This document shows, one piece after another, positions 20,031 through 38,297 of a stretch of 64,000 nt of DNA. The stretch is from an uncultured Pelagibacteraceae bacterium (GTDB taxonomy: Bacteria; Pseudomonadota; Alphaproteobacteria; Pelagibacterales; Pelagibacteraceae), in the NCBI GenBank assembly GCA_902540595.1, contig CACBNI010000005.1:5716-69715 (forward strand), read 5' to 3'. The number at the start of each line of letters is the position of its first letter. The stretch's first letter is position 1. A model generated the notes under the pieces. That model was not told the origin of the DNA. It saw only the letters and a program-made list of their open reading frames with translations, and ran no database searches. Position numbers and translations under genes: made by a program.

Positions 20031-20181
20031 GTTTTTTTTATAACTTTGTATAAGTCAAAAGCATCAATTCTCAAGTATTTTCAGCATTTTTCAACTTACT
20101 GTTTCAATTTGAAATATAATAGTTGAAAAACCCATAATGAACAAGTTATAGTTCAAATTTACATTCTCGAGGGGGGAAATT

Positions 20182-21255: not shown

Positions 21256-21271
21256 AACAAATAAAAAAAGC

Positions 21272-21301
21272 GCTGCTAGCTATTAGCTAGCAGCTTTTTT
21301 T
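21272..21301 (+). terminator. Intrinsic terminator-like hairpin between the tctC-like and tctA-like genes
   Basis: 10-bp perfect stem GCTGCTAGCT/AGCTAGCAGC, 3-nt loop, followed by T7; A tract upstream. Confidence 0.75.
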
Positions 21302-23287
21302 ATGGAACAATTATTAGCTGCACTTTTTCAACTCTTTGAGCCTACTCATTTAGCATTTCTATTTGCAGGTACTTTACTTGGTTTAATCGTTGGTATACTT
21401 CCAGGGATGGGTGGAACATCTGGTTTAGCTCTAGTTTTACCTTTTGTTTTTACAATGGAACCATCACATGCTCTTGCAATGATGATTGGAGTTCTGGCAC
21501 CAACGACGACTTCAGATACATTTCCTGCAGTACTAATGGGAGTACCTGGCACATCAGGTTCTCAAGCAACAGTAATGGATGGATTTCCGTTATCTAAAAA
21601 AGGTATGGCAGCAAGAGCGTTGAGCGCGGCTTTCAGTGCTTCATTGCTTGGAGGTGTCTTTGGAGCGTTAATATTATCAATATCAATTTATTACGCCATT
21701 CCAATAATAATGGCATTTGGATTTGGAGAACAATTTCTTTTAGTAGTCCTTGCTTTATTAATGGTTGGAGCTCTTACAGGTGACAATTTATTTAAAGGTA
21801 TTGCTTCTTGTTTTTTAGGATTAATTATTGGATCAATTGGAACTGCTCCAATTACTGGAGATCCAAGATATACATTTGATACATTATATCTTTTAGAGGG
21901 AGTACCTCTTGTTGTTGTCGGATTAGGATTGTTTGCAATTCCTGAAATTGTTGGACTTCTCGATGCTAAAGGCTCTATTGCTAAATCACTTAATACTAAA
22001 AAGGGTTGGTTCACAGGCTTGAAGGATGTAGTAAAAAATTGGTTTTTAGTTTTAAGATGCTCTACTCTTGGTTGTCTAGTTGGAGCCTTACCAGGTTTAG
22101 GAGGAACAGTCGTTGATTGGATTGCATATAGTCACTTAAAGCAAACAACAAAAGACACCTCTCAATTTGGTAAAGGTGATATTCGAGGAGTTATAGCACC
22201 TGAGTCTGCTAATAATGCAAAAGAGGGAGGTGCATTAATACCAACTTTGATTTTTGGAATACCAGGCTCTGGTAACAAAGTTTTATTACTTGGAGGCTTT
22301 GTATTGATTGGAATTGAACCTGGTTTAGATATGGTAACGACAAACCTAGATCTTACTTATCTAATGATTTGGTCTTTAGCTATTGCAAATATCTTGGGTG
22401 CTGGAATTTGTATGGGCTTTTCATCTCAAATTTCAAAATTTACTTTAGTTCCATATTACATACTTGCACCCGTCATGGTTTGTTTAATTTTTTTTGCAAC
22501 ATTTAACTTTAATAGAGACTGGTATGATTTTATTGGATTAATGTCTTTTGGTTTAATTGGTATTACCTTTAAAAATTTTGGCTGGTCTAGACCAGCTCTT
22601 TTAATAGGTTTCTTTTTATCAACTAAAGTTGAACTATTAAGTTACCAAACTCAAGCTGTTTATGGATTAAGTTTTTTAACTCGTCCAGTTTCAATAATTT
22701 TAATCATTTTATGTCTTGCTACAATTGTTCTATTGACGAAACAGAAATTTGACAAATATTATAGATCTGATTTTGTTAAAGGAAAGCTTACACAAATTTA
22801 TTATAATATTATATTGTTATGTCTTCCTTTATCAATGATATGGTTTACGATCAATTTAGACTATAGAGCTAACTTGTTTCCAATAAGCCTCAGTCTAATA
22901 GCTTTTTTTCTATTAACATTTATACTTATAATAAAAATTGCAGATTTAAAAAATTTATCATTTTTAAATTACAACATAATTAAATTTGCTCGATCAAATA
23001 TTTTTGAAATTGGTGGTAATTTCAAAATTCAAATTTATTATTATTTAAGCTTTATTGGTTTTCTATTAATGAATTTTATTTTTGGTTTTCCTATTGCTAC
23101 AGCACTTTTTATAAATATATTTATACTTTTTCATAATAAGAAATCTTATGTTTCATCAATTTGCATTTCTGCAGCATTGATGGTAATACTCTGGGCGTTA
23201 TCTTCACTGCTGACTTTACAGTTTCCAAACGGGTTGATTGGATTGTTTATCGATTTACCTTGGTGGCTGGGTGGACAATTGAATTAA
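21302..23287 (+). CDS. TTT permease TctA with C-terminal TctB-like extension
   Basis: G.LPG.G, GVPGT, APESANNA, GIPG motifs; about 160 extra hydrophobic C-terminal residues ending L.FP.G. Confidence 0.85.
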   Translation: MEQLLAALFQLFEPTHLAFLFAGTLLGLIVGILPGMGGTSGLALVLPFVFTMEPSHALAMMIGVLAPTTTSDTFPAVLMGVPGTSGSQATVMDGFPLSKKGMAARALSAAFSASLLGGVFGALILSISIYYAIPIIMAFGFGEQFLLVVLALLMVGALTGDNLFKGIASCFLGLIIGSIGTAPITGDPRYTFDTLYLLEGVPLVVVGLGLFAIPEIVGLLDAKGSIAKSLNTKKGWFTGLKDVVKNWFLVLRCSTLGCLVGALPGLGGTVVDWIAYSHLKQTTKDTSQFGKGDIRGVIAPESANNAKEGGALIPTLIFGIPGSGNKVLLLGGFVLIGIEPGLDMVTTNLDLTYLMIWSLAIANILGAGICMGFSSQISKFTLVPYYILAPVMVCLIFFATFNFNRDWYDFIGLMSFGLIGITFKNFGWSRPALLIGFFLSTKVELLSYQTQAVYGLSFLTRPVSIILIILCLATIVLLTKQKFDKYYRSDFVKGKLTQIYYNIILLCLPLSMIWFTINLDYRANLFPISLSLIAFFLLTFILIIKIADLKNLSFLNYNIIKFARSNIFEIGGNFKIQIYYYLSFIGFLLMNFIFGFPIATALFINIFILFHNKKSYVSSICISAALMVILWALSSLLTLQFPNGLIGLFIDLPWWLGGQLN

Positions 23288-23300
23288 ATAAATTTTTATA

Positions 23301-24095
23301 ATGACTGAAATAACATTTCCAAAATTACCTTTTATAAAAAGAGAGGAAAAACCCCGTGAGATAGGTATAAATTACGTTAGAGCCCCTGTGATGGTAGGAA
23401 ATTGCATTGATGATTACCTAGAAGCGTATGCAAGCGTTGTCGATATCTTTAAGATTTCAGGAAAACAAGGTGCCATGATGAGCAAAAAGTCTCTTTTAAG
23501 ATTTATTGAAACTTGTAAAAAACATAATGTTCAAATTGCATTAGGAAATCCAATTATGGATGTTGCATTATCTGGTGGAAAAGAAGTTGTAGATGATTAT
23601 TTAAATACAGTTGCAAGTCTGGGCATAGATATAATCGAAATCTCAAGTATAGCTCGTTCCTTAGATGATGATGAAATGTGCAGATTAATTAAGAACGCAT
23701 CAAGCAAAGGTATAAAAGTTATTAATGAGGTTGGTGTTGCGTTTGCACACTCTAAAGTAATCGAGGAAGAAATATTTATAGAAAGAATTAAAATGCAAAC
23801 AAAAAAATTTCTCGAGGCAGGTTCATGGAAAATATTACTTGAATCTGAGGGCTTAACAGAAAATCTTGATAAGAAAAATTATAGGTGGAATATAATTGAC
23901 AAAATTATCAGTCCATTAGAATTAAATCAGTTTATGGTTGAAGCTGATGATCAAGATGTACTATCAAAATATATTGAAATTTATGGACCAGGTATAAATA
24001 TGATGATTGACCATAGTAGAGTTCTTAAAATGGAAGATGCAAGACTAGGCTATGGACCATCACAATCCCTATGGGGTAAAGTTGTAAAATATTAG
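23301..24095 (+). CDS. Phosphosulfolactate synthase (ComA) family protein
   Basis: REEKPREIG, DDYLEAY...VDIFK, GIDIIEISS, EVG, LEAGSWKILLESEG, E..RLG. Confidence 0.75.
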   Translation: MTEITFPKLPFIKREEKPREIGINYVRAPVMVGNCIDDYLEAYASVVDIFKISGKQGAMMSKKSLLRFIETCKKHNVQIALGNPIMDVALSGGKEVVDDYLNTVASLGIDIIEISSIARSLDDDEMCRLIKNASSKGIKVINEVGVAFAHSKVIEEEIFIERIKMQTKKFLEAGSWKILLESEGLTENLDKKNYRWNIIDKIISPLELNQFMVEADDQDVLSKYIEIYGPGINMMIDHSRVLKMEDARLGYGPSQSLWGKVVKY

Positions 24096-24108
24096 ATTTT
24101 AAATAAAT

Positions 24109-24212
24109 AAATTTTACTTATTCATCTTGTTCAATTATAAATATTAGCATAAACACTCATGAAATTCATTAATGCCCTCGTGGTGAAATTGGTAGACACA
24201 AAGGACTTAAAA
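24109..24212 (+). repeat. att-like direct repeat copy 1: 65-bp promoter region plus 5' 39 nt of tRNA-Leu(TAA)
   Basis: 104 bp identical to 33255-33358; 7 mismatches to 34988-35091; ends in the anticodon loop CTTAAAA. Confidence 0.97.
24174..24212 (+). pseudogene. tRNA-Leu(TAA) 5' half fragment
   Basis: Identical to 35053-35091; no 3' half follows. Confidence 0.95.
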
Positions 24213-24235: not shown

Positions 24236-24379
24236 AGTCTCACACAGTCTCATATAGTCTTAAATCCCAGTAAATTCTAAATTTTAAAAAAACTTTAATT
24301 ATTTTTATTGCAAAATATGAATAATAAATTCCACCAAACTAGAAACTAACTAGAAACTAAAGAGATGAAATAATATAGT
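24236..24379 (+). repeat. Left arm of cassette A: AGTCT x3 (10-bp period) and AACTAGAAACT x2
   Basis: AGTCT at 24236/24246/24256; tandem 11-mer at 24337-24358; colinear with 33382-33525. Confidence 0.9.
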
Positions 24380-24386
24380 TTTAATA

Positions 24387-25265
24387 ATGAAAAAAATTTT
24401 AGGTATCGTGGTTCTAAGTTTATTAATATGTGAAAACGTTTTTGCTGGCGTAGAGGAAGTTTTGAAAGAGATCAAAAAAAATAAAGATATAGTCCAGGGT
24501 TTTGATAAAGTTAAAGAATTTGATACTTGGAATGAATGGCGTGTTACCCCTAAAGCAATACTCAAATCAGATAAATCAAAAAGACAGCATATAGTCAAGA
24601 TTGTTAATAAATCTGATAATCATCCTGTTAGATTTGGAAAACAATCTTTAAGATTTGAAGTTAGAAATGGTGATGGCTGGGGTTGGGATGCCAGGAATGA
24701 TAGAGAAAGATCCGAACTACTAATTTGTTGTGTTAATAAAAAAACTACATGGACTGCTTGGTCACTATATTTGCCTAATGATTATGAAAAGATATTTCCT
24801 GCTAAGACTATGTTAGCACAATTCCATAATGATGCTGATAATCCACCTGCATTTGCTTTTGATAATCAATCTGAACGTCATGTAAATGAGGGAGGTGGTT
24901 ATTGGATTGCAGTAGATGAATATATAAATAAGAAATTTTTACTAAAAAAACTATTAGATCATTCAGAAACACTTGGCAGATGGAACGATATTTTAGTTAA
25001 TGCAAAATGGACACACAAGGAAAATGGTTTTTTTAAAATTTGGATTAATGGTAAACTTGCTTTTCACCACAAAGGTATGACGCAAGAAAAAGGAGAAAAT
25101 ATTGAATTTCATGTTGGTATTTACAGATCTTTTCTTTCAAGAACACCTGGGCCAGATAAAACTCAAATAGCTTATTATGATGAGATAAGACATGCAAAGA
25201 CTTGTAAAAAACTTAAAATCAATGATCTAGGATATTCTTGTAAAGATATAGAAAATCAAAATTAA
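24387..25265 (+). CDS. Secreted polysaccharide lyase-like (heparin lyase I/Polysacc_lyase-like) protein
   Basis: Signal peptide MKKILGIVVLSL; SLRFEVR.GD, ERSEL, LAQFH, G.W.D, WING, GIYR, YYDEIR. Confidence 0.72.
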   Translation: MKKILGIVVLSLLICENVFAGVEEVLKEIKKNKDIVQGFDKVKEFDTWNEWRVTPKAILKSDKSKRQHIVKIVNKSDNHPVRFGKQSLRFEVRNGDGWGWDARNDRERSELLICCVNKKTTWTAWSLYLPNDYEKIFPAKTMLAQFHNDADNPPAFAFDNQSERHVNEGGGYWIAVDEYINKKFLLKKLLDHSETLGRWNDILVNAKWTHKENGFFKIWINGKLAFHHKGMTQEKGENIEFHVGIYRSFLSRTPGPDKTQIAYYDEIRHAKTCKKLKINDLGYSCKDIENQN

Positions 25266-25266
25266 A

Positions 25267-26226
25267 ATGAAAAAATTTTTATTTTTATTATTTTTTATCT
25301 TTTTAAATTATTCATATGCAGATCCATTAGTGTGGAAAGAATTAGCTGGAGGTAAAAGTAGTGGTAATTCGCGTTTAATTAATTTACCTGAAAGTGTTCT
25401 TGATGGAAAACAATTGAGAATGAACCATTGGGATGCTTGCTGGCAGAAAGGTAAAGGACCTGATCACTGTTTGATAATCACAGATGAAATTTCAAGAGAA
25501 GATAATATCTCTATTAAATTTGAAAGTCATCCAGGTGATTGTGGGATATACAAGAAATCTAATGATAGCAAAAACAACTGGAACAATTGCTATGAGGGAG
25601 CACGACGAGTTTTTATTGGAACAAAGTATCGAGATTGGGGAAGTAAATGGCTTTCATTTTCCGTATTAATCCCTAAAAATTATATTCATTCAAATACGCC
25701 ACTTATATTCAATCAAATACATAGAAAAAGCAAAGGTGCACATTATAGAATGGGTATCTCACCTGAAGGAATTGTAAATGTAGAGTTAAGAAGTTTTCTT
25801 CACGACAATAAGTGCGTTAAAATTAGTAAAAAACTTCTAGGAAAAAATATTTGTAGAAAAATAAGTGAAAAATATCACGATCCACCTTTTTTTGATTTAA
25901 AACATTTTTCTAATCACTTGGGAAAGTGGATAGATGTAATAGTGCATACACCTAATAAGAAAAGTTTACTCATGTGGGTTAACGGAAAAAAAATTATAAA
26001 TATGGAAAATAAAATGCCAGGAAACTCATCATTCTCGTCAACAAATTTTGGTATTTATCAGCCAAGAGCAAATCAAATAAAGGCTAAAGGAAAAAAAGTG
26101 GGAACTAAATGGAATTATGAGGAAGCTTCAACAGTTCAAATTTTATATATAGATGAAATAAGATTTGCAGATCAATGCAATCAATTAAACTTAATAAATT
26201 TAGGTTATAATTGTAACAAACTTTAA
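25267..26226 (+). CDS. Second, divergent secreted polysaccharide lyase-like protein
   Basis: Signal peptide; SIKFE..PGD, FNQIH, GKWID, WVNG, FGIY, YIDEIR; C-terminal C..L....LGY.C shared with the upstream paralogue. Confidence 0.65.
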   Translation: MKKFLFLLFFIFLNYSYADPLVWKELAGGKSSGNSRLINLPESVLDGKQLRMNHWDACWQKGKGPDHCLIITDEISREDNISIKFESHPGDCGIYKKSNDSKNNWNNCYEGARRVFIGTKYRDWGSKWLSFSVLIPKNYIHSNTPLIFNQIHRKSKGAHYRMGISPEGIVNVELRSFLHDNKCVKISKKLLGKNICRKISEKYHDPPFFDLKHFSNHLGKWIDVIVHTPNKKSLLMWVNGKKIINMENKMPGNSSFSSTNFGIYQPRANQIKAKGKKVGTKWNYEEASTVQILYIDEIRFADQCNQLNLINLGYNCNKL

Positions 26227-26276
26227 CATTAGTTGATTTTAAACAATGTTAGAAAAAAATCAGGTATTAAATTAGC

Positions 26277-27491
26277 ATGAATATAAAATCTTATAAATTT
26301 TCTCTTTATGATTTTGCTAATTCTGCCTTTACAACAGTTATTATAACTTTTGTTTTCTCAAATTATTTTGCGGAGTCAATTGTTCAAGATATGGTTAATG
26401 GCCAGGCATATTGGGGTTGGGCCATTTCAGTATCAGGACTATGCATTGCATTAAGCGGACCCTTTTTAGGAAATTTAGCTGATAAGAAGAATTTAAACTC
26501 AATTATCTTAAAATCAAGCACCTATTTATGTATACTTTTTACAGCAGCATTATGGTTTGCAAAACCATCTTCTGAATATATTTTATTTACCTTAATCATA
26601 GTTTGTTTGGCAAACTATTTTTATGAACTAAGTTCTATTTTCTATAATTCATTATTAGTTCATTCAGCTGACAAACAACATGTGGGAAAGGTGTCTGGTT
26701 TTGCTTTTGCGCTGGGGTATTTAGGTGGCATTGTCACACTTATTTTGACTATTATTTTATTAATTCAATCAAATTATTTAGTCGATTTAGATCAAAAAAT
26801 TAATTATAGATCAACTGCCATTTTTGTAGCTCTTTGGTTCCTCATTTTTTCCTATCCATTATTAAATCAAACTAAATATAAAAAAGTTGAACCAAACAAA
26901 AAGAAATCAAATAGTTTAAAAAAGATTCTTTGGAATAACGGTCTAACTAATACAACTCGTTTTTTGTTTGCAAGGCTACTTTATGCTGATGGTTTAAATA
27001 CCATTTTTGTCATGGGAGGAATTTTTGCTGTTGGTGTATTTAAATTATCAATAAATGAACTTTTAATGATGTCTGTTTTAATGAATGTTGCTGCTTTAAT
27101 AGGTGCTAGTTTTGGTGGATACTTCAATGACAAATATAATTCAAAAAAAACAATTTCCTTTTCCTTGATATGCCTTATTTTTTTCTCCATTTTAATCATT
27201 TTTACACAGTCAAAAATTAATTTTTTTATTTTTTCATTTTTCTTGGGATTATTTATAGGACCAATACAATCTGCTAGTAGGGTCATGATAACTAAATTAA
27301 CAAAAATTGAGGATCAAAATAAAGCTTTTGGGTTATTTGCTACTTCTGGAAAGCTGACGTCTTTTTTTGGCCCATTTTTAGTAGGAACTATTACTTTTAT
27401 AACTGAAAATCAAAGGATAGGTTTTGCCTCAGTTCTCTTACTGCTTATTTCTGGATGGATCATATTGTATAGAACCAAAGGATTAAAATAA
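26277..27491 (+). CDS. MFS transporter (UMF1/Atg22-like)
   Basis: YDFANSAF, FYNSLL, SG.AFALGYLGG, ASR, FGLFA..GK; about 12 TM segments. Confidence 0.85.
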   Translation: MNIKSYKFSLYDFANSAFTTVIITFVFSNYFAESIVQDMVNGQAYWGWAISVSGLCIALSGPFLGNLADKKNLNSIILKSSTYLCILFTAALWFAKPSSEYILFTLIIVCLANYFYELSSIFYNSLLVHSADKQHVGKVSGFAFALGYLGGIVTLILTIILLIQSNYLVDLDQKINYRSTAIFVALWFLIFSYPLLNQTKYKKVEPNKKKSNSLKKILWNNGLTNTTRFLFARLLYADGLNTIFVMGGIFAVGVFKLSINELLMMSVLMNVAALIGASFGGYFNDKYNSKKTISFSLICLIFFSILIIFTQSKINFFIFSFFLGLFIGPIQSASRVMITKLTKIEDQNKAFGLFATSGKLTSFFGPFLVGTITFITENQRIGFASVLLLLISGWIILYRTKGLK

Positions 27492-27573
27492 TGTTTATAC
27501 ACAGAGGATTAATTGAATAAAAATTTACTTAATAAACCTTAAACAAAAGTTTGATGTTTGTTAGTTAATTTTA

Positions 27574-27990
27574 TTAACAACAACCTTTTTTTTCAGTATC
27601 TGATCTTGCGCCGGCTGTATTATAAATCTCAGCATCTTCCATTGTGTGATAAGCTTCCCAAGCAACTCCATTTGGATCATTTACCCAAGATTTTTCTGAT
27701 TTTGCATAACAACATGTTACCTCACCATCAGAGTAAGTAGATATATCAGCTTTATCTAAATTAGTTCTTATATCGTTTAGTTTCTCAACTTTATCAACCT
27801 GTATTCCTAGATGATCTACTCCTAAAGTTTTTACTCTAGTAGATATTGCAAAATTAATCTTAGGATCTTCTAAAATCCATTGAGCATAATCTTCTTTTAC
27901 TTTTGTTGGTTCAGATTTAAATAAATTTTTATAAAAATTTATGCTTTCGTTTAAGTTTTTAACTCCAAGATGTAAATGTAGTCTTTGCAT
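27574..27990 (-). CDS. ArsI/CadI-family VOC metalloenzyme
   Basis: RLHLHL.V..L..SI.FY, DHLGIQV, TCCYA.SEKSWVNDP.GVAWEAY, C-terminal CC. Confidence 0.85.
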   Translation of the reverse strand: MQRLHLHLGVKNLNESINFYKNLFKSEPTKVKEDYAQWILEDPKINFAISTRVKTLGVDHLGIQVDKVEKLNDIRTNLDKADISTYSDGEVTCCYAKSEKSWVNDPNGVAWEAYHTMEDAEIYNTAGARSDTEKKGCC

Positions 27991-28172
27991 ATTTTTAATT
28001 CTTTTAAAAATTACAATACATTAAATTTTATAAAATTAAATTACAAATTTATTACAAAGAGTATCTAATCCATAAAATAAATTACAAATAGAAAAGAATG
28101 AGACATTAAAAGCTATTTAATCCACACTAATTTAAGCAATTAGACTCATGTTTTAGGATTTGTTAATCTTAG

Positions 28173-28340
28173 ATGATGGATCAACTAATACCTGTAGTAT
28201 ATATGATAGGAGTTCTATTATTGGTTCTGCCTGCTTTTTTACAGTCTAATTCTAAATTAAAACAATTATTAACTAATTTTACTATTTGGATTATCATAGT
28301 GCTTATAATTTTAACTTTTATTTATTTATTTAAGGTTTAA
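28173..28340 (+). CDS. Small two-TM membrane protein, 55 aa (not in ORF track)
   Basis: Translated by hand: MMDQLIPVVYMIGVLLLVLPAFLQSNSKLKQLLTNFTIWIIIVLIILTFIYLFKV. Confidence 0.6.
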   Translation: MMDQLIPVVYMIGVLLLVLPAFLQSNSKLKQLLTNFTIWIIIVLIILTFIYLFKV

Positions 28341-28384
28341 TGAAGAAACTTTTAGGGATCGTAATTCTGGATTATAGGATTTAA
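28340..28384 (+). pseudogene. Signal-peptide stub MKKLLGIVILDYRI*
   Basis: ATGAAGAAACTTTTAGGGATCGT nearly identical to 37225; similar to the start of 24387. Confidence 0.7.
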
Positions 28385-28386
28385 TA

Positions 28387-28422
28387 GGATAACTAGTAAT
28401 AGACTAGTAAGTAGAGAGATAA
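28387..28422 (+). repeat. Orphan internal copy of cassette A right-arm motif
   Basis: 36 bp GGATAACTAGTAATAGACTAGTAAGTAGAGAGATAA identical to 33212-33247. Confidence 0.95.
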
Positions 28423-28428
28423 TAAATA

Positions 28429-29004
28429 TTAAGTTATACTTTTTTCATCTGGTTCAAGGCATAAACCTTGAGCCTCTGTAATTTTCTCAGGTAGATTATC
28501 AAGTTTCCAGTTATTGTCTGTTATATCAAAATAATCCTGAGGATCAAAGCCCGGTTTATTAACTAACTCAATACCAAAAAAATTATTATCCTCATACCAA
28601 GCCATCATTGCACTAATCATATCTTTTACACTTTTTAATCCTGGTGCTTGCATCATGACTATATTCATGTCTCGAAAAAGATTTTGCACTAAAACAACCT
28701 TAGCTGCATCATCAATTGGATGGCCATTTATTTTAATTGGGAGTGTTTTATCTTGAAGACTTTGAATATTTTTATGACTTTTCATTGTTGTGAAAGAAAA
28801 TAAAATTCCCATCCTTTCACAATCACCTTTGTTCATAAAAAACCTTAGTTTATCTCCATGAGTTACTTCACCATTTTTAGCAGTAACTACAAAAGTATCA
28901 AATTCCTCAACATACCATTGATCTTCATCTGCTTGAGCATGGTATGCAAATAAAATTAAAAAAAGAAATAAATGAACTGAAACAATAAGTAATAGCTGCC
29001 TCAT
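28429..29004 (-). CDS. Hypothetical secreted protein
   Basis: 191-aa ORF with a signal peptide ending AQA. Confidence 0.7.
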   Translation of the reverse strand: MRQLLLIVSVHLFLFLILFAYHAQADEDQWYVEEFDTFVVTAKNGEVTHGDKLRFFMNKGDCERMGILFSFTTMKSHKNIQSLQDKTLPIKINGHPIDDAAKVVLVQNLFRDMNIVMMQAPGLKSVKDMISAMMAWYEDNNFFGIELVNKPGFDPQDYFDITDNNWKLDNLPEKITEAQGLCLEPDEKSIT

Positions 29005-29186
29005 GATTTAAGCTCCACTTTGAAGCCATTATTCCTAAAGATTTTGATTATTTTTTCCCAGACTAAGCTGTTATGTGCACCTGGGCTTACTTCGAATTTG
29101 AATGTTTTTTTGTAGACGGGATCGCAGTTATCGTATGCAACGTAAGCACTGACATGACAGTACTTCATGACACGGTCTATTTCCAT
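29001..29186 (-). CDS. Small hypothetical protein
   Basis: 61-aa ORF with an ATGA overlap to the downstream gene; start uncertain. Confidence 0.4.
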   Translation of the reverse strand: MEIDRVMKYCHVSAYVAYDNCDPVYKKTFKFEVSPGAHNSLVWEKIIKIFRNNGFKVELKS

Positions 29187-29408
29187 ATATTGGAACTCCT
29201 ATTGTTGGTTGAGGTTTTGTGGGTTAACAATTTATAGTTAGTAATGGTTCCACTCCTTTTCCTATCAAATGGTTTACGAAACAAGGATGACAATGAAAGG
29301 AACCGTAAACGTGAGAAAAGGAATGAAATCCAATGCATAATTTTAATTAATATTTTCATTTGGTGAAAAGAAGTTAAAAAAAAGTTATAAATGTGGTCTA
29401 TAAAAATT

Positions 29409-29684
29409 ATGAAAATTACTTTAAAATTTTTATTTTTACTTTTCTTTCTTTCCTCGTGTGTGAGTGGTAATTGGCAACATCAAAGTGGAAATAACACAAA
29501 TCTTTCACTAGATAAAAATTTTTGTAATAGTTTTGCAGATTCAAGGTTTCCTACCTATCTTTGTAAAAATCCTTTAATGTGTGCACCTGACGAAACCAGC
29601 AAAGTAATATCAAGTATAGCTGAAAATAGTGCAGCCTACAGAAATTGCATGTATGGAAAAGGATATAATTTGCAGGATAATTAA
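29409..29684 (+). CDS. Small Cys-rich lipoprotein
   Basis: MK + hydrophobic stretch + LSSC lipobox; YRNCMYGKGY C-terminus. Confidence 0.7.
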   Translation: MKITLKFLFLLFFLSSCVSGNWQHQSGNNTNLSLDKNFCNSFADSRFPTYLCKNPLMCAPDETSKVISSIAENSAAYRNCMYGKGYNLQDN

Positions 29685-29734
29685 GGAAAAAAAATTTAAT
29701 TTTACACTCAAATCTGACTGTGATTAGATTACAA

Positions 29735-30196
29735 ATGTCAGAAATAAACCTCTGGGACAAGTATCGAAATGAAAGCAAGCAAACTATTTGTATAATTGGT
29801 GTATTAATTCTCTCATCTAAGCTTTGTGTAGCTGACGGACATTTTTCTTTAGATGAAGAAGAGGAAATTTTGAAAATTATTCCACACGAACCTCAGCAAA
29901 AAAGAATATTAATGAGAATTTTAGAGGAAGGCGCAAAAGATCTAAATCCGATTTCTTTTCATGCTCAAAAAATAAAAAATTTAATTGGTAATGATCAGCC
30001 AGATTTTTTAGAATTTATAGTAGCTGTTCTATATAGATTAGCTCACAGCGACCATGTTTATCACGACGAAGAAGATATGGCCATAAGAGAGGTTGCAAAA
30101 ATATTTGGAATTACAAAAACTAATTGGCAATTTACTAAAGAAACTTTCTTCAAATTTTTTAAATACAAGTTTTTAAATACGAGACAAAATGCCTAA
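29735..30196 (+). CDS. TerB/DjlA-N-like domain protein
   Basis: ADGHFSLDEE and LAHSDHVYHDEE..AIREVAKIFGI, the paired TerB-like motifs. Confidence 0.75.
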   Translation: MSEINLWDKYRNESKQTICIIGVLILSSKLCVADGHFSLDEEEEILKIIPHEPQQKRILMRILEEGAKDLNPISFHAQKIKNLIGNDQPDFLEFIVAVLYRLAHSDHVYHDEEDMAIREVAKIFGITKTNWQFTKETFFKFFKYKFLNTRQNA

Positions 30197-31961
30197 TTTA
30201 GATAATATACATTACAAATTTTTTCCTAAGGCGAAAACTTCACCTTACGGAAAAACTTTAATAAAATTTGCTTGGGCAATTGAAATTATAGTTGCAACTG
30301 TTGGATTAACTATTGCTGCATTTTTGTATATGAGAGCATTAGACGGATCTGAAGATATCAGCACTGCAACCACATGGACAGAAAAACTTACTGAAAACAT
30401 TGATGGAGTAATAGTATCCCTGGCTTTTGTAGTTGTTTCAGTTGTTGAGCTTACTAAAATTCCATTAGCAACTGCTTTTTATTATGCAGCTAAAGCTAGA
30501 TGGAAAATAACCTTCGTTGTAGCACTAATATTAATAAATATATCAACATTCGAGACAATAATTCAGGGATTTGAACTTGGTTTTTATAAAAGATCTAATG
30601 AAGTAGCTAAAGTTAAGCAAAAACTGGAGGATATAAATACACAAATTAATCAAAAGACAGTAGGTGCTGGTGAGGACCGAAAGTTACTTTCAGAAAAAGA
30701 GGATAAAGTTTTAGAACAAATTAACAGCTACAATAAAGATATTACAAAAATAAATATTAATAAAAATAAGCAAATAAGTGACTTAAAAACTGAATTTACT
30801 TTAGCTAATCCACAATTAAAAACTAAACAAGACCAAATTGACTCTGAAAGACAGTCATTAAAAGAATTTAAAAGTTCATCTGATGATAAAATTCAAAGTA
30901 GACGAGTTGAAATTTCTAAACTTGAGAATATTACAGAGTTCAAAGGATCTTTCACTTTATCAAGAAAAAAGCAAATGGAAGAAAGAGATTTGAAAGTCTC
31001 TAAATTAAGAAATGATTTAATTTCATTTGAGAAAACAATAACAACAGAGATAGAAAGAAAAGAAAATTTTATTAGAGATCTCCAAAAAGAAAAAGATACT
31101 CTTGAAGGAACAATAGGTGCAGACATTCAAGAAAAAATTTCAGATATCGAAAAAATTGCTGAACTAGATAAAGAAAATATAGATTTAGATCTTAAAACTA
31201 AAAGAAGTGAACTAGCAAATATCCAGCTTCAAATAAGTGATTTTGATAACAAAACTCTTAACTACTCTAATGAAGCAACAAAACTCAAGGAACAATGTGC
31301 AGAGGTAGCTGATGAGTTGGAAAAAGTTGCCTTAGATAACCAAACCTACAGGTTTGCAATTAAAATTAAGTCTTTTAGAAAATGGCTTTCCAATTTTAGT
31401 TTTTCTTCAATCCTACCTTGGAATTGGGGTGATGAAAAAATAAATACAGAAAATAAAGATCCAGAAATTGTCGCAAGCTCAGAAAAAAAATGCTCCAAAT
31501 CAAGCGCAGCTTTAATTTCTGATGATGATCTAAATTTTGCATTCTGGTTATGGTTTGGAACGCTAGCTTTTGTAATTTCAGTAATAGGAACATTTATTGC
31601 TTTAGCTGGTCTTCATTTACAGGATGAAAGAATGCATGAAATTAGAAACAGACCTATGAAGGAAAGATTTGCCAGATTCTTTAGAAATATCGCATGGATA
31701 CCTGTTTATATTAATAAGTACATTTGGGCTGGAGTTAAAAGGTTTACCAAACCTAAAATTGTTGAAAAAGAAGTTATAGTTGAAAAGGAAGTTGAAAAAA
31801 TAGTCGAAAAAAATGTAGGTGAAAAAATTATCTATGAAAAAGTTGAGGTACCAAAAGAAGTTGTTCGAAAAGAAATTGTATACGTTCCTCTTCCTACAGA
31901 CGATGAAGAACTATTGAAAAAAGGTCCATTTAGGCCAGATGAAAAAGATAAGAAAAAATAA
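30189..31961 (+). CDS. Multi-TM protein with long coiled coil and VEK-rich tail
   Basis: About 3 N-terminal TMs, roughly 250-aa heptad-rich region, a C-proximal TM, VEKEV repeats. Confidence 0.75.
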   Translation: MPNLDNIHYKFFPKAKTSPYGKTLIKFAWAIEIIVATVGLTIAAFLYMRALDGSEDISTATTWTEKLTENIDGVIVSLAFVVVSVVELTKIPLATAFYYAAKARWKITFVVALILINISTFETIIQGFELGFYKRSNEVAKVKQKLEDINTQINQKTVGAGEDRKLLSEKEDKVLEQINSYNKDITKININKNKQISDLKTEFTLANPQLKTKQDQIDSERQSLKEFKSSSDDKIQSRRVEISKLENITEFKGSFTLSRKKQMEERDLKVSKLRNDLISFEKTITTEIERKENFIRDLQKEKDTLEGTIGADIQEKISDIEKIAELDKENIDLDLKTKRSELANIQLQISDFDNKTLNYSNEATKLKEQCAEVADELEKVALDNQTYRFAIKIKSFRKWLSNFSFSSILPWNWGDEKINTENKDPEIVASSEKKCSKSSAALISDDDLNFAFWLWFGTLAFVISVIGTFIALAGLHLQDERMHEIRNRPMKERFARFFRNIAWIPVYINKYIWAGVKRFTKPKIVEKEVIVEKEVEKIVEKNVGEKIIYEKVEVPKEVVRKEIVYVPLPTDDEELLKKGPFRPDEKDKKK

Positions 31962-32698
31962 TGTCTGATGAAAAAATTCAATATGATGTTCATGATTATG
32001 ACCCAGTTAATAAATACATTGATGATCAAGCAAGATTAAAAAGATCTGCAAGTACTTGGAGATATGCTAAATCTTTAACTCTAGTCATGGTTGGTGCAGG
32101 AATTCTAGCTTTACTTTTAGCTTGGGCTTATTATTTATATAAAAAACCACATAGACTTGTTAGTTTGAGCGAAATTGAACAAAAGGTACTTAAGAATGAA
32201 GAGAGATTAATTGAAAATGAGAGAAGGCTTCCTACAGAAAAAGAGATTCAAACAAATACTTCCTCTAATCTAACTAAATCCGAAATTAATAAAAGAGATC
32301 AAAAAATTTTAGAATTAGAAGATAAATTAAAGAATGATCCAACAAATCAGGACCTCAAGGATAAGGTTGTAAATTTAAAGGCAGAGAAAAAAGAATTACA
32401 AAAAAAATTAAATCAACTTAATCAAGTTCAGACAAACGTTATACATTTTAAATCGCAAAATACTAAACTTGGGAATAACGATGTAAGGGTTGTAACAAGA
32501 CTCCATTATGATGATCCAAGAAACTTAAATCCTAATGAAATTACATGTTATATCCAATTTGATAATCCTGATATTCCAAAAATAGAACTCTCAAATAAAA
32601 ATGACAATTCTTTTTATTTATCAAACTATAATAAAACAAAATATTCTATCAACGATCAACAAATCAGAGATTTAAAAAATAGATATTGTCTTTATTAA
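31961..32698 (+). CDS. Single-TM coiled-coil hypothetical protein
   Basis: One N-proximal TM, coiled-coil, TAATG coupling on both sides. Confidence 0.75.
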   Translation: MSDEKIQYDVHDYDPVNKYIDDQARLKRSASTWRYAKSLTLVMVGAGILALLLAWAYYLYKKPHRLVSLSEIEQKVLKNEERLIENERRLPTEKEIQTNTSSNLTKSEINKRDQKILELEDKLKNDPTNQDLKDKVVNLKAEKKELQKKLNQLNQVQTNVIHFKSQNTKLGNNDVRVVTRLHYDDPRNLNPNEITCYIQFDNPDIPKIELSNKNDNSFYLSNYNKTKYSINDQQIRDLKNRYCLY

Positions 32699-33189
32699 TG
32701 AGAAATTTTTTCATTTTAATAATTTTTTTTATTCTTCCATTTAATTATTGTGAAGCTTATGAAATTAAAGTGGTTGATGGAGATACAATTATTCTTAATG
32801 GTGAAAAAATAAGATTCTCAGGGATAGATACTCCTGAGAGTTATTATCGCGGAAAAAAACAAATCTGCTATGATGGAAATAATAAGATATTTTGTGGAGA
32901 CATATCAAAAAAAGTTTTAATTAATAAAATAGCTAGCAATGAAGTATCATGTATCAAAGAAAAAAAACCAGACAGATACAAGAGAATACTTGCTGAGTGT
33001 TTTGTAAATAATGAGAGTCTTTCCAAATATTTAGTTAGAAACGGTTATGCATTTGATTATGCTTATTATTCAAAGAAAAAATTCGCTAAGGATGAACAAT
33101 ATGCAAAAAAAAATAAACTTGGATTTTGGAAAATTGAATTTGATTACCCTTGGATTTGGAGGAAAAAAGTAAGAGAAGGAAAAATTTAA
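32698..33189 (+). CDS. Thermonuclease (SNase-like) family protein, exported
   Basis: VVDGDTI, IRFSGIDTPE, DRYKRILA, LVRNGYA, AK..KLGFW; signal peptide. Confidence 0.92.
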   Translation: MRNFFILIIFFILPFNYCEAYEIKVVDGDTIILNGEKIRFSGIDTPESYYRGKKQICYDGNNKIFCGDISKKVLINKIASNEVSCIKEKKPDRYKRILAECFVNNESLSKYLVRNGYAFDYAYYSKKKFAKDEQYAKKNKLGFWKIEFDYPWIWRKKVREGKI

Positions 33190-33198
33190 TATTTGTTA

Positions 33199-33249
33199 AT
33201 AGGACTTTATGGGATAACTAGTAATAGACTAGTAAGTAGAGAGATAAAA
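33199..33249 (+). repeat. Right arm of cassette A: ACTAGTAA x2 (11-bp period) plus AGAGAGATAAAA
   Basis: First repeat 104 bp before the tRNA fragment, the same offset as 34949 relative to 35053. Confidence 0.9.
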
Positions 33250-33254
33250 TTAAA

Positions 33255-33359
33255 AAATTTTACTTATTCATCTTGTTCAATTATAAATATTAGCATAAAC
33301 ACTCATGAAATTCATTAATGCCCTCGTGGTGAAATTGGTAGACACAAAGGACTTAAAAT
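33255..33359 (+). repeat. att-like direct repeat copy 2: promoter region plus 5' 40 nt of tRNA-Leu(TAA)
   Basis: Identical to 24109-24212; tRNA fragment at 33320-33359. Confidence 0.97.
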
Positions 33360-33381
33360 AGTTTGAGTTGGTGAATTTCAA

Positions 33382-33525
33382 AGTCTCTAATAGTCTCAAA
33401 TAGTCTTATTCCCTTATAATCCTATATATTTTAAAATCATTGGATTACTTTTATTGAAAAATCATAATAAATAATATTCAGATTCTCGGAACATTCTCGG
33501 AACTAGGCAGATAAAATGATATAGT
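33382..33525 (+). repeat. Left arm of cassette B: AGTCT x3 and ATTCTCGGAAC x2
   Basis: AGTCT at 33382/33392/33402; tandem 11-mer at 33482-33503. Confidence 0.9.
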
Positions 33526-33562
33526 AAAATTAATAGAACACAAATCAACATTTAAAGAATTA

Positions 33563-34645
33563 ATGAAAAAATGGGATTTTAATAAAATTAAATTATCAGC
33601 AAAAAAATATAAAACAAAGGAAGAGTGGAGACAGGGAAAAAACACATCATATTATACAGCCGCAGATAGAGGCTTATTAAATAATAAAATTATAGTTGGA
33701 CATTTTTTAGAACCTAAAAGATGGACATTAAAAAAAATTGTTGATGATGCTAAAAAATATAAATTTAAAAAAAATTGGTACGAAACACCAAAATCATCTT
33801 ATGATGCTGCTAGATCAAGAGGATTATTAAAAAATAAAGAAGTAATTGGTCATTTTAACAAAACAATATATCCATCAAAGTGGACATTAAAAAAAATAAT
33901 TGCAGCAGCCAAAAAGTTTAGTACCAAAAAAGAGTGGCTAGATGCTGAAAAAACTAAAGTATGTTTTTCGTACAGAGCAGCAAAAGAAAGAAAACTTTTA
34001 TTTGATAAAAGGGTTATTGGGCATTTCAAAAATATGGATCCAGCAAAAAAGTGGACTTATTTAAATATAATCAATACGGCTAGGAAATGTAAAACTTTGA
34101 AAGAATGGAGAGAAAAATACCCGTATGCGTATCACAGAGCATCAAAAACTAGGGTTTTAAATAAAGTTTCAGGACATTTAAAGAGAATAGGCCATAAATA
34201 TCTAAGATGTATTTATACAATAGAAGTTAGGGGAAAAAAAATAATTTATATAGGCTTGTCATTTAATTTAACAAAGAGATTAGCGGAACACCTTAATAGT
34301 AAACGTTTTAAAGATATCAAAAAGATTTATGGAAAAAATTGTTTAATTGTAAATCAGGTAACCAAGTACTTGCCAGTCAATAAAGCTGCTAAAAAAGAGG
34401 ACATATTAATTTCAAAATACAAAAAAAAGGGTTTCAAAGTTCTTAATAAAAAAAGTGGTGGTGATTTAGGGTCAATAGCTAGTAAATGGACCAAAGAAAA
34501 AGTTATACAATCTGCTAAAAAATTTAAAACTCAAAAAGAATGGAGAGCAAAAGTACCTTCAGCATATGCAATAGCAAAAAGGAAAGGTTATTTAAAATCT
34601 GCGCAAAAATTTCTTTATGTTCAAAAAGAAAAAATAAGATATTAA
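33563..34645 (+). CDS. GIY-YIG nuclease with five helical repeats of about 50 aa
   Basis: CIY...IYIGLS..LTKRLAEH...E...LN core; repeats W(T/D)..KI...AKK(Y/F).T..EW....AY..A...LL. Confidence 0.8.
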   Translation: MKKWDFNKIKLSAKKYKTKEEWRQGKNTSYYTAADRGLLNNKIIVGHFLEPKRWTLKKIVDDAKKYKFKKNWYETPKSSYDAARSRGLLKNKEVIGHFNKTIYPSKWTLKKIIAAAKKFSTKKEWLDAEKTKVCFSYRAAKERKLLFDKRVIGHFKNMDPAKKWTYLNIINTARKCKTLKEWREKYPYAYHRASKTRVLNKVSGHLKRIGHKYLRCIYTIEVRGKKIIYIGLSFNLTKRLAEHLNSKRFKDIKKIYGKNCLIVNQVTKYLPVNKAAKKEDILISKYKKKGFKVLNKKSGGDLGSIASKWTKEKVIQSAKKFKTQKEWRAKVPSAYAIAKRKGYLKSAQKFLYVQKEKIRY

Positions 34646-34671
34646 TTAATTAATATATTTATAAAAGTCTT

Positions 34672-34929
34672 ATGGAATTTCTTGGTTTATTTATAGGAAA
34701 TATGTTTTTAATGTATTTAGGACTTTTCCTATTTGCATGTATTTGGTGGTACAGTTGTAAATGGTTTTTTGTTTTATTAGTTTTAGTTGGTGAAAAATTT
34801 TTTAAAAAAGACAGCTGGCAATACAATATTTATATGTTTACTTTTGTTGGTGGGGGTGGACTTGTAACAGTATATTTATTTATTTGGCTTTTTTTATCAA
34901 TATCAAAAGGAGAGTGGTTAACGTTTTAG
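34672..34929 (+). CDS. Small two-TM membrane protein
   Basis: 85-aa hydrophobic ORF inside cassette B. Confidence 0.65.
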   Translation: MEFLGLFIGNMFLMYLGLFLFACIWWYSCKWFFVLLVLVGEKFFKKDSWQYNIYMFTFVGGGGLVTVYLFIWLFLSISKGEWLTF

Positions 34930-34931
34930 TT

Positions 34932-34982
34932 ATTGGATTTTATAGGACAACTCGGAACAAACTCGGAAACAGAGAGATAAAA
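34932..34982 (+). repeat. Right arm of cassette B: AACTCGGAA x2 (11-bp period) plus AGAGAGATAAAA
   Basis: Repeats at 34949 and 34960; colinear with 33199-33249. Confidence 0.9.
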
Positions 34983-35005
34983 TAAAAAAATTTTACTTAT
35001 TAGCC

Positions 35006-35034
35006 TTGTTCAATTATAAATATTAGCATAAATA
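35006..35034 (+). promoter_or_regulatory. Putative sigma70 promoter of tRNA-Leu-nadK (copies at 24127 and 33273)
   Basis: TTGTTC-17 bp-TAAATA (TAAACA in the other two copies), ending 18 bp before the tRNA 5' end. Confidence 0.6.
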
Positions 35035-35052
35035 CTCATGAAATTAACTTAT

Positions 35053-35138
35053 GCCCTCGTGGTGAAATTGGTAGACACAAAGGACTTAAAATCCTTGCCG
35101 CTTGCGGAGTGCCAGTTCGAGTCTGGCCGAGGGCACCA
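35053..35138 (+). tRNA. tRNA-Leu(TAA)
   Basis: Acceptor GCCCTCG/CGAGGGC, anticodon arm AAGGA-CTTAAAA-TCCTT, long variable arm, GTTCGAG, CCA. Confidence 0.97.
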
Positions 35139-35142
35139 TTAA

Positions 35143-35913
35143 ATGAGTAAACCTCAAATCATTTCAGATAAAAATAAAAAATCTCTTAAAATTAAAAATA
35201 TTCTAATCAAAAAAATAGAAGTTAATCAATTCAAAAAATCTAATTTGGTAATTGTTATAGGTGGTGATGGTTTTATGCTTCAAACACTTAAAAAAAATAA
35301 GAGTTCTAAAAAGCAATTTTATGGAATTAATTCAGGAAATTATGGTTTTCTGATGAATATTTTTTCCTCAAAAAATATTATTAAAAATTTAACAAAAGCT
35401 AATATGATTTCTATTTCACCATTAGAAATGACAGTAAAAAATAAAAATAATAAATCAAAAAAATCACTTGCTATAAATGAGGTTTCTGTCCTTAGACAAA
35501 GCAGACAAGCTGCATCATTATCTATCAAGCAAGGTTCAATACAAATAATTAAAAATTTAGTTTCCGATGGTGTTTTAGTCTCTACACCTGCAGGAAGCAC
35601 TGCTTATAATTTATCTGTTCATGGTCCGATACTAAGCTTAAATTCAAAAAAATTATCTATTTCTCCAATTAGTCCGTTTAGACCGAGAAGATGGAGAGGG
35701 AAAATTGTTAACGATAAATCAAAAATTACTATTACTAATTTGAATCCAGATAAAAGACCCATAAGTGCTGTTGCTGATAATCTAGAAGTAAGAAACGCAA
35801 AGTCAATTACAATTAAAACCAACAGCAAAATTAAATTTAATCTGCTTTATGATAAAAATCGAAGTTTACAAAAAAAAATTAAAATTGAGCAATTAAGAAG
35901 AGAAACAAATTAA
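35143..35913 (+). CDS. nadK: NAD kinase
   Basis: GGDGFML, GFLMN, AINE, DGVLVSTPAGSTAYNLS. Confidence 0.93.
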   Translation: MSKPQIISDKNKKSLKIKNILIKKIEVNQFKKSNLVIVIGGDGFMLQTLKKNKSSKKQFYGINSGNYGFLMNIFSSKNIIKNLTKANMISISPLEMTVKNKNNKSKKSLAINEVSVLRQSRQAASLSIKQGSIQIIKNLVSDGVLVSTPAGSTAYNLSVHGPILSLNSKKLSISPISPFRPRRWRGKIVNDKSKITITNLNPDKRPISAVADNLEVRNAKSITIKTNSKIKFNLLYDKNRSLQKKIKIEQLRRETN

Positions 35914-36123: not shown

Positions 36124-36131
36124 AAATTTAA

Positions 36132-36179
36132 TGGTGCCCCCGCACGGATTCGAACCGCGGACCTATTGATTACAAATCA
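36132..36179 (-). repeat. att-like duplicate of the 3' 48 nt of tRNA-Thr(TGT)
   Basis: Identical to 38222-38269; identity stops just past the anticodon loop. Confidence 0.97.
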
Positions 36180-36271
36180 GGAATAAAAATTCAAAAAGAT
36201 AAATACTATCAACGTTAATTGAAAGTTATTTCAAATCTGTACACACTATAGGCACAGTGGTATATTTTTTT

Positions 36272-37225: not shown

Positions 37226-37260
37226 TGAAAAAACTTTTAGGGATCGTGGATCTGGGTTAA
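37225..37260 (+). pseudogene. Signal-peptide stub MKKLLGIVDLG*
   Basis: Near-identical to the stub at 28340; overlaps the upstream stop (TAATG). Confidence 0.7.
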
Positions 37261-37270
37261 CTTTATTTTA

Positions 37271-38101: not shown

Positions 38102-38115
38102 CGACTACTTGATTG

Positions 38116-38168
38116 ATACACAATCCATACACACTCTATACACAATCAAAGCACACTATGAGCACAGT
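38116..38168 (+). repeat. Five CACANT repeats at an exact 11-bp period (arm of cassette T)
   Basis: CACA at 38119, 38130, 38141, 38152, 38163; two more at 36242 and 36253. Confidence 0.92.
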
Positions 38169-38221
38169 CAGGATAGAAATTTAACTTTTTGAAAAAATTT
38201 AACGTTGATTTTATTGAGTGA

Positions 38222-38297
38222 TGGTGCCCCCGCACGGATTCGAACCGCGGACCTATTGATTACAAATCAATTGCTCTACCAACTGAGCTACAAGGGC
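38222..38297 (-). tRNA. tRNA-Thr(TGT)
   Basis: Reverse complement GCCCTTGTAGCTCAGTTGGTAGAGC-ATTGA TTTGTAA TCAAT-...GTTCGAATCC...CACCA, 76 nt. Confidence 0.97.

Follow-up and report, generated by a model that had tools for sequence, protein, structure and literature searches.

Matched, probably arm-type repeats at the ends of integrase-less cassettes in a SAR11 tRNA-Leu island suggest mobilisation in trans

Introduction

A 64,000-nucleotide stretch of an uncultured Pelagibacteraceae genome (assembly GCA_902540595.1, contig CACBNI010000005.1, positions 5,716 to 69,715; hereafter the window) carries a SAR11 island upstream of an intact tRNA-Leu(TAA) gene (35053-35138). The island contains two cassettes, A and B, inserted in the anticodon loop, each with paired repeats of 11-bp period at both ends. 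Here we report that the short word written in these repeats is the same at the left and right ends of most such cassettes in SAR11, and that it tracks the N-terminal domain of integrases from satellite-like elements, called helpers here, which carry the same tRNA half. The repeats are likely to be arm-type sites at which such an integrase acts in trans.

The closest described systems are the heterobivalent integrases, namely lambda Int (PMC4880445), the HPI and HAI7 integrases (3JTZ, 3JU0, 3RMP), IntSXT with DUF4102 (PMC8138268) and KplE1 IntS (PMC2951348). In lambda, the N-terminal domain binds the arm sites and bending proteins bring the arms to the core (PMC4880445), and the described integrase domain classes include an IntSXT subgroup with DUF4102 (PMC8138268). 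The SAR11 system shares with these an N-terminal three-strand/helix domain, a core in a tRNA gene that has arm repeats to either side, a cluster of repeats in the interval from core to arm, and a left attachment site (attL) that overlaps the start of the integrase gene. It differs from KplE1, in which attL overlaps the promoter (PMC2951348), in that the helper left arms fall inside the integrase reading frame. Unlike the known heterobivalent systems, it combines at least a dozen arm words and exchanged N-terminal domains on one tRNA target, and most of its arm-bearing elements have no integrase.

Cis-mobilizable elements (CIMEs; PMC5704250), like the SAR11 cassettes, have neither an integrase nor transfer genes, keep attL and attR and accrete in tandem at one site. 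They are decay products of integrative conjugative or mobilizable elements and are moved in cis by conjugation (PMC5704250), whereas the SAR11 cassettes have scaffolds of their own that are unlike the helpers outside the motifs. CIMEs are characterized by having arisen through the decay of a complete element of their own family; this was not what we found, as the left scaffolds in the window were at most about 50% identical to helpers. The marine phage satellites known as VEIMEs (integrative mobile elements encapsidated in virions; PMC9618062; PMC11876622) resemble the helpers in size, tyrosine integrase, primase, excisionase-like gene and Pelagibacter host. About 20% of VEIMEs are reported to have no integrase and might borrow one (PMC9618062; PMC11876622). 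The available parts of these descriptions do not mention att arms, coded integrase-less chromosomal cassettes or exchange of N-terminal domains. Packaging as concatemers in virions is a further VEIME trait, which the presence of helpers among IMG/VR contigs does not by itself demonstrate for the helpers. Tycheposons and cryptic elements of Prochlorococcus (bioRxiv 10.1101/2020.12.28.424599) likewise stack cargo at tRNA genes, leave partial tRNA copies and live in a streamlined marine host, but tycheposons carry integrases, which the SAR11 cassettes do not, and arm words are not reported for them in the available part of that source. HTVC019P-type pelagiphages (bioRxiv 10.1101/410191) integrate at tRNA-Leu(TAA) and supply the tRNA 5' part. 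The T7-like phage attP seen in our analysis differs from the cassettes in having no AGTCT repeats and no arm pairs. Additive islands are also described in another streamlined clade (PMC10872708).

Neither integrase-less SAR11 cassettes with an arm code nor natural exchange of arm-binding domains at one target was found described in the literature searched, which included recent SAR11 genome papers but few subscription papers. The system is real and widespread; arm sites, CIMEs, VEIMEs, tycheposons and pelagiphage integration at this tRNA were already known.

Results

The island and its paired repeats

The upstream region and first 39 nt of tRNA-Leu(TAA) recur at 24094-24212 and 33240-33358, and each copy stops after the anticodon loop. 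A cassette was therefore defined as running from one 39-nt tRNA-Leu half to the next, which gives 9146 bp for A and 1733 bp for B. This half, up to the anticodon loop, is the core shared by attB, attP, attL and attR, and it is present in all three window copies and in the helper attP. The end points of the three copies place the crossover, most likely, in the anticodon loop at 35085-35091. The relatives that matched best are Pelagibacteraceae. Neither cassette encodes an integrase, as an earlier sequence-only reading of this DNA had noted. No member of the helper integrase family was found in the genome, which is 1.2 Mb long and 88% complete; its two PF00589 genes, on other contigs, encode a Xer-like protein and an unrelated integrase beside tRNA-Met. 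An integron cassette array has an adjacent intI and attC hairpin sites between its cassettes; here there is no adjacent intI, and the boundaries are tRNA halves. The features of the island are as follows.

24094-24173, + strand: host copy of the tRNA-Leu upstream (promoter) region, which recurs at the right end of every cassette (repeat family D1)
24174-24212, + strand: 5' half of tRNA-Leu(TAA), 39 nt, the last 7 nt being the anticodon loop; putative attL core of cassette A
24236-24261, + strand: three AGTCT repeats, 10-bp period; likely excisionase (recombination directionality factor, RDF) sites, a putative function; spacing as in helpers
24337-24370, + strand: left arm pair of cassette A (CTAGAAAC twice) and tail; word as in the right arm pair of helpers L048/L178
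24387-27491, + strand: cargo A part 1, two polysaccharide-lyase-like proteins (PF14099) and a major facilitator superfamily transporter
27574-27990, - strand: cargo A, ArsI/CadI-family metalloenzyme (NF041414.1, above cut-off)
28340-28422, + strand: relic right end inside A, with gene-start stub, TAGGA repeats, arm pair CTAGTAAT/CTAGTAAG (28392, 28403) and tail
28429-33189, strand unassigned: cargo A part 2, open reading frames (ORFs) of no known family, TerB-like protein, coiled-coil proteins and SNase-like nuclease; no integrase
33200-33247, + strand: right end of cassette A, with TAGGA repeats, arm pair CTAGTAAT/CTAGTAAG (33217, 33228) and tail; word as in helpers L167/L169/L179
33248-33358, + strand: attR(A)/attL(B) junction, with cassette-borne tRNA upstream region and second 39-nt tRNA half (33320-33358)
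33382-33407, + strand: cassette B copies of the AGTCT repeat, three with a period of 10 bp; likely RDF sites, a putative function
33482-33516, + strand: left arm pair of cassette B (CTCGGAAC twice) and tail
33563-34929, + strand: cargo B, 360-aa GIY-YIG-domain protein with internal repeats and 85-aa hydrophobic ORF
34949-34980, + strand: right arm pair of cassette B (CTCGGAAC/CTCGGAAA) and tail; words as in the right arm pair of helpers L173/L174
35053-35138, + strand: intact tRNA-Leu(TAA), whose 5' half and upstream region form the right end of cassette B (attR)

The sequence-only reading had described four pairs of 11-bp period, each followed by an AGAT(A/G)AAA tail. All four were present as described on the + strand (24337/24348, 33217/33228, 33482/33493 and 34949/34960), each with its tail. 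It had overlooked a fifth pair inside cassette A (28392/28403), which is the same as the A right pair with its tail and identical to it over 33 bp, and the three AGTCT repeats at each left end (24236/24246/24256 and 33382/33392/33402). The pattern CT[AC]G[AGT]AA-N4-CT[AC]G[AGT]AA occurs five times in the 1.2-Mb genome, always inside the island, and did not occur in any of 10 order-3 Markov simulations of the genome. The reading had also proposed a CTAG versus CTCG code, shared within a cassette and different between cassettes. For B the word is indeed the same at both ends (CTCGGAA), but the proposed code is too coarse, the informative word being 7-8 bp, and cassette A differs by one base, with CTAGAAA on the left and CTAGTAA on the right.

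Cassette A is likely to be a fusion of two cassettes that lost the promoter, tRNA half and next left end between them. The internal pair and the gene stub preceding it align with the genuine right ends of L064, L036, L122 and L123, but the alignment ends after the tail, and this relic end has neither promoter nor tRNA half. The A/T position of the word is probably tolerated, since helper L175 and cassette L044 hold both forms and the N-terminal domains of the integrases matching the two A words (L048 and L167) are 78% identical while their bodies are 59% identical. A common gene start, MKK(I/L)LGI..., opens cargo genes at 24387 and 37225 and forms the stub at 28340 before the internal arm pair. 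The same stub precedes the right ends in L064, L036, L122 and L123 and may be a recombination point for cargo exchange. Cargo of A at 25241-27527 is 95-97% identical to cargo in L052, L055 and L093, and L052 and L093 bear other words.

The word matches between left and right ends across SAR11

A GTDB scan for left ends gave at least 131 stretches; flanks were taken for 80, which together with the window made a first set of 83 complete tRNA-to-tRNA segments. Both pairs were readable with an anchored arm caller in 66 of these. The 17 unread segments comprised one integrase-bearing element, other families or spurious anchors, decayed pairs and at least two segments that seemed mismatched. A further 28 segments formed a second set, in whose selection the motif played no part; they were taken from 34 genomes, among the matches listed, in which the tRNA core is repeated.

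An exact 7-mer was common to the left and right ends in 60 of the 66 cassettes, compared with a mean of 4.6 (maximum 13) under free permutation and a mean of 19.7 (maximum 33) under permutation within left-scaffold type; because kin are not independent, these permutation figures are too strong. When one cassette per cargo cluster was kept, 43 of 47 matched. In the second set, both pairs were present in 19 segments, all of which matched (null mean 2.4, maximum 9), so that 79 of 85 cassettes match in the combined data, with 23 words. The left-right co-variation that the sequence-only reading had set as a check was thus found in both sets. Across junctions between neighbouring cassettes the words matched in 1 of 49 cases (null 2.3), indicating that the left-right match is not an effect of host or locus. 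Avoidance of neighbours with the same word was unsupported by this comparison (P = 0.30).

Identity between left and right was 0.92-1.0 per position at bases 1-6 of each repeat, while spacers, flanks and tail were no more alike than background. The four repeat copies of a cassette change in concert, and the spacer bases do not. Arm-arm distances were strongly correlated between the two ends (rho 0.87), in contrast to scaffold-scaffold distances (rho 0.13). Among 48 pairs of cassettes with left scaffolds at least 90% alike, 26 differed in word, and each difference was mirrored at both ends.

The cassettes have a common layout, in which the three AGTCT repeats occupy about +24 to +49, one arm pair follows at +127 and another stands 140 bp before the next anticodon loop. 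The helper integrase was present in just 1 of the 83 first-set segments. Roughly 102 of 279 genus genomes with the tRNA core, counted by eye, have two or more core copies. A second cassette family occurs at tRNA-Leu (L071, L101, L271, L284), with CTAGTGTAGTT repeats at both ends and other spacing.

Helper elements carry the same words

Viral and metagenome contigs, including IMG/VR contigs, contain satellite-like elements of 7.8-9 kb in which the same tRNA half is present as attP. Their genes include those for a tyrosine integrase of 515-550 aa, an excisionase-like protein of about 97 aa, a primase and a RusA-like nuclease. The helpers annotated, L003/L004, L048 and L159, showed no conjugation genes. 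Their att layout is that of the cassettes around the same tRNA half, with arm pairs at about +127 and -140. The left arms are written into the integrase gene, at codons 9-24, at the offset of the cassette left arms; these in-gene copies resemble the pair upstream of the core but are more degenerate. All three words of the window were found in helper attP: that of B in L173/L174, that of the A left end in L048/L178 and that of the A right end in L167/L169/L179. The helper integrase family was present in 12 of 401 family genomes, in 4 of those 12 at tRNA-Leu. T7-like pelagiphages are unlikely to be the helpers and were rejected, as the attP sites seen have neither AGTCT repeats nor arm pairs and no match to the helper integrase family was found.

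Further integrase subfamilies occur at the same tRNA (L020, L022, L203, L205, L224, L229, L236, L248), with the words GTTGCCCA, GTTACCCA, GTCACCCA, TTACACACC and others; these words, too, agree between the two sides of attP and are located in the gene start. Contig L189 (2426-11883) has two attP junctions with different arms, and its two integrases are identical save for the N-terminal domain; it is either a cointegrate of two helpers or an assembly chimera. Upstream of the integrase in L252 lies a cassette-type right end (TAGGA repeats, arm pair, tail) that is common to L250 and L251 and whose target is not tRNA-Leu, indicating that the scaffold is in use at other sites. Viral contig L012, with PhoH-like and other phage-like genes, terminates in a cassette right end at 2866-3066 (word CCTGTACA) and the tRNA half, and is either a phage-carried cassette or a chimeric contig.

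The integrase N-terminal domain tracks the word

The sequence-only reading had suggested that each cassette is matched to an allele of an integrase or of an accessory factor. The integrase part of this proposal was supported. The N-terminal domain model (pLDDT 92) consists of a beta-sheet and a helix, and the three structures closest to it in fold, 3jtz, 3rmp and 3ju0, are arm-type binding domains from HPI and HAI7 (TM to target 0.65-0.76); a profile sequence search of the PDB with this domain gave nothing credible. The best fold match of the full integrase is lambda Int, and the PHROG integrase profile matched with an E-value of 1e-24. Residues R373, K400, R485, H508 and Y518, which we take to be the catalytic residues of a tyrosine recombinase, are invariant in the helper integrases; the first His of HxxR is replaced.

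Word and domain were compared in 18 integrases of the AGTCT subfamily, out of the 36 listed at this tRNA plus two with incomplete upstream DNA, and the alignment columns containing the in-gene arms were left out. Arm distance tracked N-terminal domain distance (rho 0.50, p 0.0002, partial 0.50) but not the rest of the integrase (rho 0.09, p 0.19), and the word co-changes with residues of about 25-135. The correlation between motif class and N-terminal domain that the reading had called for was thus observed. In the pairs L189a/b, L186/L184 and L192/L188 the bodies are 97-100% identical, the N-terminal domains are 44-63% identical and the arms differ, with the break near residue 140. The domain tree places L174 with L019/L162/L157 (96/99) and L048 with L167/L175/L177 (100/99), in conflict with the body tree, which places L174 with L048/L177 (100/100). 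Judged by these comparisons, integrases that are otherwise identical exchange their N-terminal domain, and this domain tracks the arm word. A cysteine in the first sheet strand (LKLC) was seen by eye in 4 of 4 integrases with C at word position 7 and in 0 of 14 others, a count that is uncorrected for multiple testing.

The accessory-factor part did not hold for the putative excisionase, which was rejected as arm reader. This protein is the same over the 75 residues compared in L189a/b and L171/L175 and nearly the same in L162/L019, pairs whose arms differ. The ORF of about 97 aa lies downstream of 17 of the 18 integrases and has the Atlas lead 'Excisionase' (0.92) with no match in Pfam, PHROG or NCBIfam; the AGTCT triplet is linked to it by position only. 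The genome has two IHF/HU-family genes.

Cassette ends turn over while the words stay matched

No helper was more than about 50% identical to the left scaffolds in the window, and a matching word did not raise a helper's rank. Right scaffolds, which include the host-type promoter, are shared by cassettes of different words (mean 84%) and show no relation to the word (rho 0.04). Between L044 and L092, cassettes of one family, 38 of 295 bases in the ends are different, against 3 of 2359 in the cargo. This indicates that the ends turn over faster than the cargo, yet left and right ends match in nearly all cassettes. The same cargo was found under different words. One cassette of 2654 bp is shared at 98.8% identity by two hosts in which the adjacent NAD-kinase region is 79.6% identical and the upstream neighbours are unrelated, a host comparison that was feasible for 1 of 12 cassette pairs. 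The cassette ends are thus not recent deletion products of helpers, and ancient derivation is possible. Taken together, the scaffold, word-switch, end-turnover and host data favour a maintained, mobile lineage over passive remnants.

No circle of cassette B was seen: no joint from right to left end was among the joints listed for 33000-35400 in Logan contigs of 4 of 24 runs, where contigs break at the repeated promoter-tRNA segment and the cargo is thinly covered, so that this negative carries little information. The cassette right-end pattern had no matches in viral contigs.

Discussion

We consider it likely that the paired repeats are arm-type sites of lambda/P4-like integrases, and that the cassettes are non-autonomous and mobilised in trans by an integrase with the matching N-terminal domain. 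The interpretation of the repeats as arm sites given in the sequence-only reading is supported. In the proposed mechanism, an incoming or resident helper would provide integrase and excisionase, and the arm-binding domain would bridge the cassette arm pairs to the core, by analogy with lambda. Crossover in the anticodon loop would then free the cassette as a circle, for whose passage between cells virions and vesicles are possible carriers. Because all helpers share one tRNA target, the arm word would pick the cassette out of the stack, and re-integration would restore the tRNA, since the cassette brings its own promoter and 5' half. Integration would need only the tRNA on the host side, so that new cassettes would enter beside the intact 3' half and B would be younger than A. 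New specificities may be created by swapping a module of attP and arm-binding domain, and cassettes would persist only while both ends match a circulating helper. Integrase bound to the in-gene arms might also repress its own gene, by analogy with the attL overlap in KplE1.

Several observations weigh against mobilisation by a word-matched integrase. Cassette A, with CTAGAAAC on the left and CTAGTAA(T/G) on the right, is one of the 6 mismatches among 85 cassettes; it is scored as a one-base mismatch because cassettes with CTAGAAAC at both ends exist. Five more mismatches are known, at least two of the 17 excluded segments (L087 and L078 first) look mismatched, and 9 of the 28 second-set segments have no readable pair at one or both ends. 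A helper with the same word in attP was seen for only 7 of 23 cassette words (29 of 79 cassettes), and the in-gene left arms of helper L174 differ from the word of B. Metagenome helper contigs can be chimeric, and L189a and L189b come from one contig. For the domain, Foldseek E-values were 0.003-0.01, and Pfam Arm-DNA-bind_3 matched 2 of 28 sequences (best E 0.026). The arm-binding-domain sequence adjoins attP, and its correlation with the arms may therefore partly be linkage; the permutation p of 0.0002 also ignores kinship, with 4 of 18 arm labels taken from in-gene copies and one register set by hand. The Escherichia coli consensus for integration host factor (IHF) was not enriched in the ends (18 and 6 of 66 versus about 26 in shuffled sequence). 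Finally, no circular integrase-less cassette was found in the contig and viral searches, so that mobilisation in trans stays inferred.

If the arm sites are real but the cassettes are immobile CIME-like relics of full elements that lost their integrase and core genes, their ends would match by descent, and the cassettes would now spread only by homologous recombination at the repeated promoter-tRNA segment and flanking genes. Integrative elements have been documented to decay into remnants that are flanked by att sites and accrete in tandem (PMC5704250), it has been argued that homologous replacement underlies the turnover of SAR11 variable loci (bioRxiv 10.64898/2026.10.07.757358), fused cassettes and decayed ends are present, and the missing circles fit as well. 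We nevertheless regard this explanation as unlikely, given the low identity of the window left scaffolds to helpers with no preference for the word-matched one, the right scaffolds shared independently of the word, and the persistence of the left-right match under the end turnover seen in L044/L092. Within a word class the spacers diverge by 30-43% and the repeats hardly at all, a comparison that is partly circular, as the classes were defined on the repeats. Alternatively, the cassettes could cycle through circles without the word being a strict code: the arms would be linked in the circular attP and exchanged as a block, and integrases would cross-react widely. The words differ by just 1-3 bases, CTAGAAAC and CTAGTA(G/A) are mixed in cassette A, L044, L096 and helper L175, the L048 and L167 domains are close, and many words have no known helper. 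This explanation is quite doubtful, however, as in several independent pairs the swapped protein segment stops just where the arm-binding domain does, the four copies per cassette change jointly while spacers do not, and left and right scaffolds co-vary only weakly.

The repeats adjoin promoters, as the left pair precedes the first cargo gene and the right pair precedes the tRNA promoter, and arm sites can double as repressor sites, as in KplE1 intS (PMC2951348). That they are operators of a host or cassette regulator is nonetheless very improbable, since neighbouring cassettes of one host differ in word, the 66 cassettes fall into 47 cargo clusters and hence have no common cargo, and the words recur in helper attP and track the integrase N-terminal domain. 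Duplication of one arm pair at cargo insertion, or gene conversion between the ends, would account for the pair and tail in one orientation at both ends and for the identity of the internal and right pairs of A. Copying of a block would also carry spacers, flanks and tail, yet those match at background only, and helpers have pairs on both sides of the core with no such duplication. This origin is largely refuted, and we give it almost no weight.

Other features were observed in the same genome. A second island lies at tRNA-Thr(TGT), window positions 36131-38269. It has a duplicate of the last 49 nt at the tRNA 3' end (36131-36179) and CACAC-type repeats at 36240-36259 and 38115-38169; its cargo comprises an exonuclease III-like gene and a candidate defence gene (PDC-S11, E 1e-124), with no integrase. 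Host contig C9 (L002) has a 474-aa integrase of another family beside tRNA-Met, with partial tRNA copies further along, and contig C6 has a 5' tRNA-Gly duplicate. Directly upstream of the tRNA-Leu island, window positions 19167-24095 hold two ComA-family genes around a TctA-type transporter pair.

SAR11 is described as having a huge open pangenome with a near-absence of mobility genes, and the arrival of its small variable gene blocks has been called unresolved (bioRxiv 10.64898/2026.10.07.757358). All mobility information of the cassettes is in about 330 bp of non-coding ends, and gene-based searches therefore overlook them. Under mobilisation by a matching integrase, the integrase that moves a given cassette could be predicted directly from the arm word. 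The exchanged arm-binding domains and their words form a natural series that would be a ready data set for a protein-DNA recognition code, and could be useful for orthogonal integrases on one shared target. We propose more tentatively, as a possibility we rate at slightly below even, that SAR11 has an addressed cassette system with more than 20 arm barcodes, in which rare satellites shuffle the arm-binding domain together with attP and so make orthogonal integrase-arm pairs, in a race of a parasite with its own parasite. A passing satellite would then pick only its own cassettes, and cassettes would re-barcode to follow satellites, or satellites would re-code to escape. Roughly a third of Pelagibacter genomes would, in that case, hold a dedicated integrase-less cassette lineage at tRNA-Leu.

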